From positions 12,067-76,066 of IMG/VR virus record IMGVR_UViG_2563366840_000011: a DNA stretch of 64,000 bases, one strand, 5' to 3'. This document shows, piece by piece, positions 9,960-26,308 of the stretch (its first letter is position 1; each line of letters begins with the position of its first letter). The notes under the pieces were generated by a model. The model had not been told where the DNA came from and did not search any database. It saw nothing but the letters and a program-made list of their open reading frames with translations. This DNA is from a virus. Lineage: Duplodnaviria > Heunggongvirae > Uroviricota > Caudoviricetes. The position numbers and the translations under genes are program-made.

Positions 9960-13640
<3,681 letters not shown>

Positions 13641-20309: not shown

Positions 20310-21062
20310 TTATCTCGTCACCTTCCTCAATTGCGCTTCCGCGTATGCTTCTTCCTGCCAGCACTTTGTTACCAGTTTACCAATGACGTCCGCATACCCC
20401 TTATACCACTGATAATCGGTCAGGTCTGGTACCAGCTTCTGGACATGACGTCGTGCCAGCGTGGTCGGTAAACGACTAAACCGGTTTCCATTACAACGCC
20501 CACAAATCTTATATACCGGTACGCCATGAAACCGGGTTCTTTTTTCATCCAGAACAATCCCTTTACCCTTACACCCTCTGCACGCTGTGCTGGCTTCGCC
20601 CTTACCATGGCAATGCTGACATAGTTCCTTCACCCATTCTTCCTTGATTACAGATTCCCCGCGTCTGTAGTGTTTCACCACTTCGCGCAATACATTATAA
20701 AATCCCGTACCTGAACAATGCTCACAGCGAGCCTTACTTGCCGCAGACCTGGAGTAATCAGCAAAGGCAAAACTCACGAGGTAAGGAATAATCTGTAACC
20801 GGATTTCTTCACTCAATTTGTTCAATGTCGGGTTATCCAGTGCCATCGCGTAATTTAGCAGGCCTTCAATCGCAAACTGAGGGTCCTGAACACCAACTTT
20901 TGCCAGAAATAAGGCCAACCCAAGTGGTGCTTTCGACTGCACCATCCCCTGCGCTGCCATTACATCCGTAATTGTTAAACAACCGGTGCCTGTCGCTGGA
21001 GCGTCATCGCTCAATTTTGGAGATTTTGGGGAGTAATATTTTGGTAAGGCTTCAAGGTTCAT
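20310..21062 (-). CDS. quuQ: Late antiterminator Q (Qin-type)
   Basis: From ATG at 21062: MNLEALPKYYSPKSPKLSDDAPATGTGCLTITDVMAAQGMV... (250 aa) with Cys-rich zinc-binding region; upstream of the lysis cassette. Confidence 0.85.
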   Translation of the reverse strand: MNLEALPKYYSPKSPKLSDDAPATGTGCLTITDVMAAQGMVQSKAPLGLALFLAKVGVQDPQFAIEGLLNYAMALDNPTLNKLSEEIRLQIIPYLVSFAFADYSRSAASKARCEHCSGTGFYNVLREVVKHYRRGESVIKEEWVKELCQHCHGKGEASTACRGCKGKGIVLDEKRTRFHGVPVYKICGRCNGNRFSRLPTTLARRHVQKLVPDLTDYQWYKGYADVIGKLVTKCWQEEAYAEAQLRKVTR

Positions 21063-21075
21063 GCTCGTTCTCCAC

Positions 21076-22125
21076 TTACGCCAGTACGCCAATTGCCAGC
21101 GCGCGATCGATAAAACGAAATATCAGCTCCAGTTGGGAGCCATACTTATCTTCAAATGCCACTGTATCCGTATGCAGCTCGTTGTGATGCTTTCTGCACA
21201 AAGGCAACACAAAGAGATCATGTGCTTTTGTTCCCATTCCGCCCTGCCCGTGACCAATCAGATGATGCGGATCGTCGGCTGGCATACCGCAGCAAGCACA
21301 CGGCTGTGTCTTAACCCAACGTGTGTATTTCTCCTTAACCCAGCGGCGACGTTTAGGCAGCTTCATGAAAGATTCCGGAGACTCTGGATCAACGGTGATG
21401 CTTACCACCGTCTTTTCCTGTGGTGATTTTTGTTGCTGGTGGGCGTAAGGCAACGGTGCAAGATTTTTTGTGCGTTGTTTCAATATGCTGGTGGCGGTCT
21501 GCTCTCCCGGTACGATGTCGCTTTCGCGGTACACCGAGCAGATTTTTTCCGCTGGTAATCCCAGCGAACGACGCGATACAGCCTCAGGTAGTGCATCCAC
21601 CACCTGATTGCAGACCGCCCACCAGGATAATTCAGCCAAAGATAATTCCCGCTCCTGCGTACCGCTTATTGCGTGACGGATGACGTCAATCACCCATGCT
21701 GTCAGATTTTGTTGAGCAAGCAGCTCCAGTGATTCCGATGTCTGGTCACGCAGTTGGTTGTCGCAGTGCCAGCACAACACCATTGCGCCGGTACCATAAC
21801 GGTGAATGACTGTTTCAGTGTGATGGTAATCGCCATTAGGCCACTGGCAGGATGTAACATGACGTAATAGCCAGTCGGACAATGCGCCAACGCCGCCAGC
21901 AGCACGAATCACCCGTTCGTTACTAAAAAACGGCAGCAATGTTTTGTCTTCCGCCAGCGGCTGGCGAACGGCAGGAACGACTCCGGATGGCAGATTACGC
22001 ATGCTTTTTGGTTCCGGTTCCACCAGCACTCGAGGATTATGAAATATCTGTATGGATTCACGGCCCGGCTTAAGGACCACCAGCCCAAGCTCAGGCACCA
22101 GAACAGGTCTAAGTAATACCCGCAC
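21076..22125 (-). CDS. ydfU: YdfU-like protein with C-terminal HNH-like Cys/His motif
   Basis: GTG at 22125 preceded by GGAGG; C-terminus ...QPCACCGMPADDPHHLIGHGQGGMGTKAHDLFVLPLCRKHHNELH; 349 aa from this start, ORF track extends to 22164. Confidence 0.7.
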   Translation of the reverse strand: MRVLLRPVLVPELGLVVLKPGRESIQIFHNPRVLVEPEPKSMRNLPSGVVPAVRQPLAEDKTLLPFFSNERVIRAAGGVGALSDWLLRHVTSCQWPNGDYHHTETVIHRYGTGAMVLCWHCDNQLRDQTSESLELLAQQNLTAWVIDVIRHAISGTQERELSLAELSWWAVCNQVVDALPEAVSRRSLGLPAEKICSVYRESDIVPGEQTATSILKQRTKNLAPLPYAHQQQKSPQEKTVVSITVDPESPESFMKLPKRRRWVKEKYTRWVKTQPCACCGMPADDPHHLIGHGQGGMGTKAHDLFVLPLCRKHHNELHTDTVAFEDKYGSQLELIFRFIDRALAIGVLA

Positions 22126-22126
22126 G

Positions 22127-22405
22127 TTACCTCCAGATCCGTTGCTGGAAAGTGCGGGACGCACGTGGTGGGCGTTCGGAATAAGGCAGCCTGACAGAGA
22201 TTATCCAGTGCCGATAGTCGAGACTGAGAGCTTTCTTAACCTCGAACCCGCGCCTGCGGTAAGAATGAATCAGCCATTCGGCCTGTTCTGCAGTGCATGG
22301 AGGGTGCTGGAACCATTCAGACTTGAATGCGTGAGAATACCGCCCGTGCGTGCAGGCAAGAACGGGCGAATTATCAGAATTGTAATATTTTGCGTTGCGT
22401 GCCAT
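22127..22405 (-). CDS. Hypothetical protein
   Basis: 92-aa ORF MARNAKYYNSDNSPVLACTHGRYSHAFKSEWFQHPPCTAEQAEWLIHSYRRRGFEV...; stop abuts the ydfU start. Confidence 0.45.
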   Translation of the reverse strand: MARNAKYYNSDNSPVLACTHGRYSHAFKSEWFQHPPCTAEQAEWLIHSYRRRGFEVKKALSLDYRHWIISVRLPYSERPPRASRTFQQRIWR

Positions 22406-22471: not shown

Positions 22472-22723
22472 TTATTCTTCTGAAAAAGCAGAAAAGCCAG
22501 CTTTTATTCCGATCTCTTTCAATGCCTGTAATGAAGTGACAAACTCACCTTCGCGCAAGATAAATCCGTCCGTGACCCGAGCATCCACAAAATTAATTAA
22601 CGCAGCCCCATTCTTTCGCAAACACATAATGCGGTAATGACTAACAAGATTTCCATTTTCAACGCACACAGCATAGAGGCCATCTTCACAAAAAATTTTA
22701 CGCAGTTCTTCGATGTTCATCAT
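22472..22723 (-). CDS. rem: Rem-like small protein (assignment by size and position only)
   Basis: 83-aa ORF MMNIEELRKIFCEDGLYAVCVENGNLVSHYRIMCLRKNGAALINFVDARV... between ydfU and hokD. Confidence 0.45.
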   Translation of the reverse strand: MMNIEELRKIFCEDGLYAVCVENGNLVSHYRIMCLRKNGAALINFVDARVTDGFILREGEFVTSLQALKEIGIKAGFSAFSEE

Positions 22724-24994: not shown

Positions 24995-26308
24995 TCAATC
25001 TTTTTTATCGGGATCAGGCTTCTTTTTAGGTAACTTCGGGGGCTTAACTTGCTGATGACTTTGCGTTCGGCGCGTAAGCCAGGGATGGTCAGCTTTAGGT
25101 TTAACATAGTATTTTGAGCGTAAATCAATACGGGCATTATCCACTCGTTCATGGACACTCTTTTCATCATCCAGTGGTATAGGCTCCGGGCCATCAACAT
25201 ACTTTTCCCAGCCCAGCGCTTTCCCGTCATACAGAACGTTAATTTCACCGTCAAAGTTCTCGCATACAGTAACAACCGAATGCCTAAGTCGATATCCCCG
25301 GCCCTCACTGCGTACCTGAAACGCACTGCTTTTGTACTGGAAAGTGAGATTTTTAGACAGAACGCGCTTCGCCTGTAGGCTGAAGATATAACCCAGTTCC
25401 TCTTCAGAATGGTGCACATCAAGATGAGCATTATCAGTAGTACGAGGCGACGTAGCGAACCGGTTGTTATAGGCTTCAATAAAGGTCGGCAACCATGCAT
25501 TTGCTGTTTCAATATCACTGATATTCTGAAGCCGCATTTCTTTGACCAGCCTGTCCTGTAGTGTCTGATTGGCGCGCTCTACCCGCCCTTTTGCCTGCGG
25601 GCTGTTGGCATGGATTGGCTCGATGCCCAGTGTCTTTATCGCACGAGTGAACTGGGTCAGCTCACCTTCCCGCTCTGGGTTATTTACCCTGAATATACTG
25701 TGTCTATCAGAGTAGAGAGCGAGCGGTACGCCATGATCATTAAGGTAACCCCGGAGGGTTTCCATGTAAGCCCGGGTTGTTTCAGCAGGCACAAAACGCA
25801 ACGCCATCAACGCACTGGTGGCATCATCAATGAAAACGATCAGTGTACATCTGGGGCCTCGATTTTCAAACCAGTCATGAGGTGAGCCATCAATCTGGAT
25901 CAGTTCACCGTAAGATGGTCGTCGCATGCGGCGTTGATATATACGGGCAATTTTACGACGGCGTTCACGCCATAACCCCTCTTCTATCATCCACTTTCTG
26001 AGAGTTTCAACGGATAAAGATAAACCGTGTATCTCGCGCAATTTTTCGCACGCAAACGTAGGTCCAAAATCAGCGTAACGGCCTTTGAGGAGTGAAATTA
26101 CTGTTGCTCTGAATTCAGTAGAAAAGGAATTATTAGGACGCTTTCCACGTCGGTGGGAAACCAGACCAGAAGGCCCTTCATTTCTATACCGTTGCACCAG
26201 ACGTTTAACCTGCCGAATAGAAATGCCAATGCGTGCCGCAGCTTGTTCCTGAATAATCTGAAGTCGATGGAGTTCCTTATGACTCATCGTAACAGTCTCT
26301 TTGATCAT
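24995..26308 (-). CDS. DDE (integrase-core type) transposase of an unclassified IS element
   Basis: 437-aa ORF with N-terminal HTH-like region, then IQIDGSPHDWF..., LYSDRHSIF..., ANSPQAKGRVERANQTLQ (DDE/rve-like); element ends not resolved. Confidence 0.65.
   Translation of the reverse strand: MIKETVTMSHKELHRLQIIQEQAAARIGISIRQVKRLVQRYRNEGPSGLVSHRRGKRPNNSFSTEFRATVISLLKGRYADFGPTFACEKLREIHGLSLSVETLRKWMIEEGLWRERRRKIARIYQRRMRRPSYGELIQIDGSPHDWFENRGPRCTLIVFIDDATSALMALRFVPAETTRAYMETLRGYLNDHGVPLALYSDRHSIFRVNNPEREGELTQFTRAIKTLGIEPIHANSPQAKGRVERANQTLQDRLVKEMRLQNISDIETANAWLPTFIEAYNNRFATSPRTTDNAHLDVHHSEEELGYIFSLQAKRVLSKNLTFQYKSSAFQVRSEGRGYRLRHSVVTVCENFDGEINVLYDGKALGWEKYVDGPEPIPLDDEKSVHERVDNARIDLRSKYYVKPKADHPWLTRRTQSHQQVKPPKLPKKKPDPDKKD

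Follow-up and report, generated by a model that had tools for sequence, protein, structure and literature searches.

The open reading frame (ORF) at positions 21076-22125 on the minus strand of the DNA analyzed here, a 64-kb stretch of a virus of the Caudoviricetes (positions 12,067 to 76,066 of IMG/VR record IMGVR_UViG_2563366840_000011; hereafter the window), is ydfU of the defective lambdoid prophage Qin. Its product, YdfU, is probably a two-domain, delayed-early HNH nuclease of the ninR-type module of Qin that processes recombination or replication intermediates. This reading is carried by a C-terminal domain that is predicted to adopt an HNH nuclease fold, by the conservation of its putative catalytic residues, and by the position of the gene among related phages.

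The identity of the gene follows from its surroundings, since a 3.8-kb region that includes it matches Qin of the Escherichia coli K-12 derivatives C600 and J53 with 100% identity. In these strains, the ORF is annotated as ydfU, encoding a "DUF968 domain-containing protein," in the gene order relB, relE, hokD, rem, a 92-amino-acid hypothetical protein (ynfS), ydfU, and ydfT (antitermination protein Q). The Qin copy of ydfU is intact, and the N-termini of full-length homologues align with YdfU residue 1.

Proteins then classed as DUF968 have been described as carrying a zinc-finger HNH motif (Curtis et al., 2014; PMC4118853), and DUF968 and DUF1364 (YbcO, 3g27) together make up group 7 of the His-Me finger nucleases, in which Qin YdfU (NP_416078) is named (Jablonska et al., 2017; PMC5714182). 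The latter study listed RusA and the antiterminator Q as genomic neighbors of the DUF968 group and proposed for the YdfU group a role in recombination or repair like that of NinG and the RecA-dependent nucleases; fusions to Erf, Rad52, and RusA have also been reported (PMC4118853; PMC5714182). The HNH nature of YdfU and of DUF968, together with the RusA/Q neighborhood, is thus already published, and PHROGs labels the family HNH endonuclease. What is new here is small, namely a candidate second HNH-like zinc domain and a clade of homologues, that of PdcB of phage P1, in which the catalytic residues have been replaced.

The C-Terminal Domain

The first-pass annotation had proposed for this ORF an HNH-like motif of the form CxCC...HH...H-x4-G...CxxHH-x3-H, and every one of the listed elements is present in the translation, as C276-A-C278-C279, H287-H288, H288-LIGH-G293, and C310-R-K-H313-H314-N-E-L-H318. 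When the window was translated in all six frames, a relaxed regular expression for the motif matched once, at 21172-21300 (minus strand); it matched in none of 50 shuffled windows and in none of 100,000 shuffled versions of the YdfU sequence. Conservation was assessed in 29 aligned full-length homologues with 26-80% identity, from a family that forms 2885 clusters at 50% identity. Two residues, C276 and D303, do not vary (29/29); H287, H288, H314, and H318 are each retained in 26 of the 29, C279 and C310 are retained in 24 and 25, respectively, and 24 sequences have Cys or His at position 313. As judged from this alignment, the motif residues are under selection.

YdfU matches the Pfam family DUF968 (PF06147) at 256.8 bits against a cut-off of 27.8 (E value 1.4e-76), the match spanning residues 160-346 of the protein and model positions 1-171 of 171, and PHROG 96, "HNH endonuclease," covers the full length of the protein (E 2.8e-171). 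NCBIfam contains no model for YdfU. The family of the protein is a matter of direct observation, as are its predicted fold and the synteny of its gene.

In the structural model, the C-terminal domain has the beta-beta-alpha-metal arrangement of HNH and His-Me finger nucleases, in which a helix follows a two-stranded hairpin, and retains the full catalytic set; it is not modeled as the non-nuclease zinc ribbon that the first-pass annotation had named as the outcome that would speak against a nuclease. H287 and H288 lie at the end of strand 285-288, the place of the catalytic His; D303 is central, and H314 and H318 lie in the helix at positions that, by analogy, would be those of metal ligands. 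The two pairs C276-x2-C279 and C310-x2-H313 flank the hairpin and helix, as in the zinc-finger subclass of HNH domains, and are predicted to bind zinc; the corresponding CCC[C/H] pattern occurs in 24/29 homologues. By analogy with characterized members of the fold, C276, C279, C310, and H313 would be structural zinc ligands, H288, at the end of the first strand, would act as the general base, and one divalent metal ion would be held by residues from H287, D303, H314, and H318. Fold comparison of YdfU gave a score of 8.7 with the P1 Ref nuclease (3plw; 77 residues, root-mean-square deviation 2.4 Å, 25% identity), 7.0 with the HNH domain of IscB and likewise with that of CBASS Cap5, 6.1 with YbcO (3g27), and 5.5 with EcoKMcrA. 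On this modeled structure, the C-terminal domain is a zinc-stabilized HNH/His-Me finger nuclease fold of the DUF968/DUF1364 group.

Gene Neighborhood

The synteny of ydfU was examined in 80 related viral contigs, which are 82-100% identical E. coli loci, and an ORF downstream of the ydfU homologue was called in 74 of them. This ORF encodes RusA in 58 loci, a Q protein of the YdfT type (PF03589) in 11, and a Q protein of PF06530 in 5. Where RusA is followed by a called ORF (56 loci), the product of that ORF is Q-like in 55, and these Q-like genes fall into four families, PF03589, PF06530, PF06323, and DUF1133, the last two of which were assigned by checking one representative each against Pfam and grouping the rest by length and visible similarity. 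Annotated phage records, in which the homologues have 44-58% identity, extend this order to other genera: a RusA/YdfU/Q block is also found in E. coli phage Kati, Yersinia phage YeP2, and Citrobacter phage Chris1, Salmonella phage ST64B has RusA, a KilA-N protein, YdfU (split), and Q, and a Klebsiella phage has RusA, DUF968, and DUF1133. The matches to YdfU also include a RusA-DUF968 fusion (P0055). The first-pass annotation had considered the position next to Q unusual for a phage HNH protein; adjacency to RusA and/or Q is instead the family norm (74 of the 80 loci and five phages of other records), so that of its interpretation the HNH-type nuclease fold stands and the unusual position does not.

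Thus, ydfU sits in a recombination (ninR-type) module between the replication genes and Q. The corresponding region of lambda, between P and Q, is the home of Orf, Rap/NinG, and NinH (PMC4118853), and the HNH-type junction nuclease NinG/Rap is encoded there three genes upstream of Q. Given the pairing of the family with four unrelated Q families, its adjacency to Q more likely reflects module order, as the last delayed-early genes before the late regulator, than a specific partnership with Q; the association with RusA is the more telling of the two. The early-region position is common to all lambdoid relatives checked. It differs from the terminase-adjacent position of the HK97 gp74 type, ydfU being upstream of Q and the lysis genes, and in C600 the gene for the DNA-packaging protein NohA lies about 7 kb from ydfU, beyond the lysis cassette; terminase-adjacent HNH proteins are a class separate from YdfU. 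Of the Rho-dependent terminators whose strength has been measured in E. coli in vivo, that upstream of Qin ydfU is listed with the strongest, and the authors of that study considered it to silence toxic prophage genes (PMC9160355). Given this terminator, ydfU would not be expressed in the lysogen, and its transcription would require antitermination during lytic growth.

Several records of homologues depart from the usual gene structure or label. The YdfU homologue of the ST64B reference is present as two overlapping genes, sb47 ("HNH endonuclease") and sb48 ("DUF968"; L001:3983-4937), and is covered by tblastn in two pieces, which indicates a frameshift, real or due to sequencing error. In a few E. 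coli assemblies, YdfU is fused in frame to YdfT (P0003, P0004, and P0006, each 607 amino acids, and P0056). Since ydfU and ydfT are 13 nt apart and in different frames, such a fusion requires a 1-nt insertion or deletion, and these fusions are probably the result of mutation or sequencing error. Pfam PF27659 is found solely on the 607-amino-acid YdfU-Q fusions and is absent both from the fusion without full-length Q (P0056) and from full-length YdfU entries; from this distribution it was attributed to Q and not to the N-terminal domain of YdfU. Some phage records (mEp460_4F5, 1720a-02) carry the label "antitermination protein Q" on the YdfU homologue. In six further entries (P0165, P0209, P0210, P0274, P0193, and P0145), the first 150-300 residues of a YdfU homologue are joined to fragments of tail-tip protein J, tail fiber, major capsid, or portal; these were rejected as functional fusions of the N-terminal domain, their likeliest origin being deletion within a decayed prophage or chimeric assembly.

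The N-Terminal Domain and Linker

Outside the HNH domain, residues 2-134 have a sole match, to PHROG 11007 (function unknown), and Pfam coverage is limited to residues 160-346. The predicted hairpin and helix of this N-terminal domain carry the conserved residues C93-Q...[C/H]101...C118-W-H-[H/C]121-D122-N123. C93 and C118 are invariant in the homologue alignment, the sequence C-W-H-[H/C]-D-N at 118-123 is conserved, and the Cys/His quartet at positions 93/101/118/121 co-varies, being CCCH in 16/29, CHCC in 7/29, and CHCH in 5/29 homologues, the pattern expected of a second structural zinc site. Strand 1 of the domain does not end in a conserved His, H102 being retained in 15/29. The N-terminal domain is therefore a moderately supported candidate for another HNH-like zinc domain, one that is degenerate and probably not catalytic. 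An Orf/NinB-like identity for the non-HNH part of the protein, as described for Gram-positive "DUF968" proteins (PMC4118853), was ruled out, hhalign of the family profile with lambda Orf (NinB) giving an E value of 0.82 and a probability of 0.05%.

The two domains are separated by a linker modeled with low confidence, which contains the conserved patches E201-S-D203, D246-P-E, and P257-K258; K258 is invariant, and E201, D203, D246, and P257 are each present in 23-28 of 29 homologues.

Proposed Role and Relation to Known Proteins

In the model favored here, YdfU would consist of two folded parts joined by a flexible linker and be the product of a delayed-early gene of a ninR-type module. The C-terminal HNH domain would cut DNA by a one-metal mechanism, and the N-terminal part would carry its own four-ligand zinc site in a degenerate HNH-like fold that lacks a conserved general base and, together with its helical region, would most likely serve in recognition of DNA, substrate, or a partner, or in dimerization. 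The most likely task of YdfU during lytic growth would be to cleave or nick intermediates of recombination or replication (single-stranded DNA, D-loops, or branched DNA) in parallel with the action of lambda Rap/NinG and P1 Ref and alongside the RusA resolvase, to which YdfU is linked in nearly all cases. We infer nuclease activity, substrate, and biological role by analogy; recombination and replication intermediates are the likely substrates from the analogy with Rap/NinG and Ref and from the linkage to RusA.

Lambda Rap/NinG (PF05766), a branch-specific endonuclease, belongs to His-Me finger group 24 of the same superfamily (PMC5714182) and, like YdfU, is encoded in the same module position upstream of Q and has the common motif "PC..CG...D..H"; it is the best functional analogy for YdfU. 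The two differ in size and domain architecture, and hhalign finds between them an 18-column local match (probability 6%, E 0.006); membership of YdfU in the NinG/Rap family was rejected, as there is no Pfam match and the alignment is a short, motif-level one. YdfU is linked to Ref and YbcO by fold comparison alone. YbcO of prophage DLP12 and phage 82 (DUF1364, 3g27), a member of a different Pfam family, is an HNH domain alone of ~80-96 amino acids, whereas YdfU has ~260 extra N-terminal residues that include the predicted second zinc domain, and the two have no sequence match by phmmer or profile. P1 Ref (3plw) has a disordered basic N-terminus where YdfU has the second predicted zinc domain, and YdfU, which scores below the RecA_dep_nuc threshold, is not a member of the Ref family; the resemblance is structural only. 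The Orf-HNH proteins of Listeria and Staphylococcus (HNHc_6; "DUF968" in PMC4118853) resemble YdfU in their C-terminal zinc-finger HNH domain and phage recombination context but have an Orf-like N-terminal domain, which YdfU lacks.

Besides Ref, P1 carries a separate YdfU homologue, PdcB. Like P7 Upf95.7, PdcB is a full-length homologue of YdfU (26% identity over residues 32-348) with Pfam DUF968 and the same two-domain layout; pdcB (L003:3905-4948) lies directly upstream of lpa, the late promoter activator gene, and two genes from pacA/pacB. Unlike in YdfU, the residues at the positions of H287, H288, H314, and H318 are replaced, and PdcB is probably not a nuclease, as judged from these replacements.

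Variation Within the Family and Evidence Against a Nuclease

The family varies at its zinc and catalytic sites. In five homologues (P0184, P0202, P0222, P0241, and P0263), two or three of the four zinc ligands of the C-terminal domain are missing (e.g., C-T-H-E, C-T-R-E), and the full catalytic HH-D-H-H set is retained. The zinc site would therefore be dispensable in part of the family, and the persistence of the catalytic set despite loss of the zinc ligands is an argument for selection on catalysis. All four catalytic His residues are replaced, for example by Y/L/Q/A, in the three-member PdcB clade (P0130, P0284, and P0140), which retains both zinc sites, D303, and the overall architecture.

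This clade is one of several points that weigh against the nuclease reading of YdfU. Its existence without the catalytic His residues implies that the family has some function for which catalysis is not needed; PdcB itself is non-essential (PMC10695390) and of unknown function (PMC10695390; PMC10067587). The match to HNHc_6 (PF16784) is borderline and below threshold (26.3 bits against a cut-off of 26.6, E 6.3e-6, residues 271-328), HNHc_6 being nevertheless listed in the precomputed Pfam annotation of many close YdfU homologues, and that to RecA_dep_nuc (PF16786, the Ref family) is likewise below its cut-off (17.8 bits against 26.9). Searches of PDB sequences with the whole protein, the C-terminal 94 residues, and the 29-sequence profile gave no meaningful match to a solved structure. 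The whole-protein model has a mean predicted local distance difference test (pLDDT) score of 71.5, and the loop 292-300 beside the active site is unmodeled. Against an HNH-like N-terminal domain in particular, a Foldseek search with that domain returned nothing significant, and hhalign of the N- and C-terminal sub-alignments, which pair in the expected register, gave P ~0.1. The linkage to RusA is guilt by association. Lastly, ydfU is still among the uncharacterized genes of E. coli K-12 (PMC11551758), and a literature search found no paper reporting an activity of YdfU. The variation at the zinc and catalytic sites described above points to selection for catalysis in most members of the family, YdfU included, and to a scaffold that can persist without it.

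Alternative Explanations

A more elaborate form of the model is that YdfU is a tandem-HNH protein, in which the N-terminal zinc domain (~90-130) is an ancient, inactivated duplicate of the C-terminal HNH domain, the two forming an intramolecular pseudo-dimer that recognizes branched DNA, and in which a catalysis-independent scaffold function, tied to the early-to-late switch, has been retained in the PdcB clade. This is speculative and rather unlikely to hold as a whole; if true, the tandem-HNH and scaffold reading would explain the placement of the gene directly before the late regulator (four unrelated Q families; Lpa in P1).

It is less probable still that YdfU is mainly a non-catalytic zinc-finger factor binding DNA or protein, a regulator or adaptor at the early-to-late switch for which the HNH fold is a mere scaffold. 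The PdcB clade, which has lost the four His residues and yet retains the zinc sites, D303, and architecture, would fit such a factor, as would the invariable position of the gene just before a late regulator (Q of four families, or Lpa) and the resemblance of the N-terminal domain to an inactivated HNH domain; His-Me fingers that have lost activity and serve in DNA binding alone have precedents, such as Smad MH1 (PMC5714182). The catalytic set is, however, complete in YdfU and in 26/29 diverse homologues, the five homologues with partial sites have lost zinc ligands and not the catalytic set, and pairing with four unrelated Q families points to a modular position and not a specific partnership, the tighter link being with RusA. 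A non-catalytic regulator is accordingly possible for the PdcB clade and unlikely for YdfU.

That YdfU is an anti-phage defense or superinfection-exclusion nuclease of the prophage is very improbable. HNH domains are common in defense effectors, Cap5, McrA, and a type I-E HNH Cascade are among the structural neighbors, and Qin has other moron-like genes (e.g., relBE, hokD); but PADLOC assigned no family at E<=0.01 to YdfU or its two upstream neighbors, the gene is part of an early lytic operon, is not placed as a moron would be, and is unaccompanied by a sensor partner, and the upstream Rho terminator (PMC9160355) suggests silence in the lysogen, where a defense gene should be expressed.

A packaging-associated role, as for the HNH proteins of HK97 (gp74) and GVE2 in stimulating terminase cutting at cos or pac, is scarcely to be expected of a gene that lies in the early region upstream of RusA/Q, with Q and the lysis cassette between it and terminase in Qin and all lambdoid relatives examined, and whose product matches Ref and YbcO better in structure than GVE2 HNH, exceeds proteins of the gp74 type about threefold in size and has an extra N-terminal domain, and, in the copy nearest terminase, that of P1, lacks the catalytic His residues.

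Many free-standing phage HNH genes are homing endonucleases, and the genes flanking ydfU differ between phages (RusA or different Q families), as a selfish invader of the region upstream of Q would allow. Such an origin is equally hard to credit, since homologues of 26-58% identity in different genera occupy one and the same position in the module, as vertical or modular inheritance would give, a Pfam search of YdfU found no NUMOD, AP2, or other homing-type DNA-binding domain, there is no intron or intein context, and YdfU is grouped with YbcO (DUF968/DUF1364) and not with the homing groups (PMC5714182).

Features of the Locus

The coordinates of ydfU, its predicted domains, and its neighbors are given in Table 1. 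The stop codon of ynfS abuts the start of ydfU, and the two genes are probably co-transcribed; the 92-amino-acid ORF is annotated as a hypothetical protein in C600, and its name in K-12 is from the y-ome table (PMC11551758). YdfT matches Pfam Antiterm (PF03589; E 4.2e-54) and PHROG 127, "anti-termination protein Q-like" (E 3.3e-105).

Table 1. Coordinates, in the window, of ydfU, its predicted domains, and neighboring genes.
Feature	Position	Strand	Description
ydfU coding sequence	21076..22125	-	349 amino acids; GTG start 22125-22123, stop 21078-21076; ORF list and translation
N-terminal domain, residues ~55-195	21541..21963	-	predicted beta-hairpin 105-118 and helix 119-127, then helical extension
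Linker, residues 196-261	21343..21540	-	low confidence, pLDDT mostly <60
C-terminal HNH (beta-beta-alpha-metal) nuclease domain (predicted), residues 262-349	21079..21342	-	
Motif core, residues 276-318	21172..21300	-	predicted zinc site C276, C279, C310, H313; predicted catalytic/metal residues H287, H288, D303, H314, H318
Shine-Dalgarno sequence GGAGG	22130..22134	-	4 nt upstream of the ydfU GTG, within the 3' end of ynfS; read from sequence
ynfS	22127..22405	-	92-amino-acid ORF, stop 22127-22129; PHROG 1212 (function unknown), E 1.7e-35
ydfT (quuQ)	20310..21062	-	Q-type late antiterminator, so annotated in C600; starts 13 nt downstream of the ydfU stop
rem	22472..22723	-	
Transposase gene	24995..26308	-	437 amino acids; helix-turn-helix (HTH) and rve_3 domains; between flxA and ydfW

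Three further observations concern neighboring genes. YdfT also matches the DnaJ central CXXCXGXG zinc-finger domain, above the Pfam cut-off (E 1.5e-8). The match of rem to a SocB toxin model (E 0.0099, 14.9 bits against a cut-off of 210) is almost certainly due to chance. The 437-amino-acid transposase is annotated as "ISNCY family transposase" in identical records of E. coli C and WG5 and is absent from that position in C600, from which it follows that the window does not derive from a K-12 genome of the C600 type.

Significance

As a discovery, the finding on ydfU matters little. The YdfU family is, however, very widespread in enterobacterial prophages, including Shiga toxin (Stx)-converting phages, and the practical value of the analysis is a testable annotation of YdfU as a two-zinc, two-domain nuclease of the ninR module with named predicted catalytic residues. 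P1 PdcB provides a natural, catalytically dead clade for comparison with YdfU, which would make a short biochemical study straightforward.
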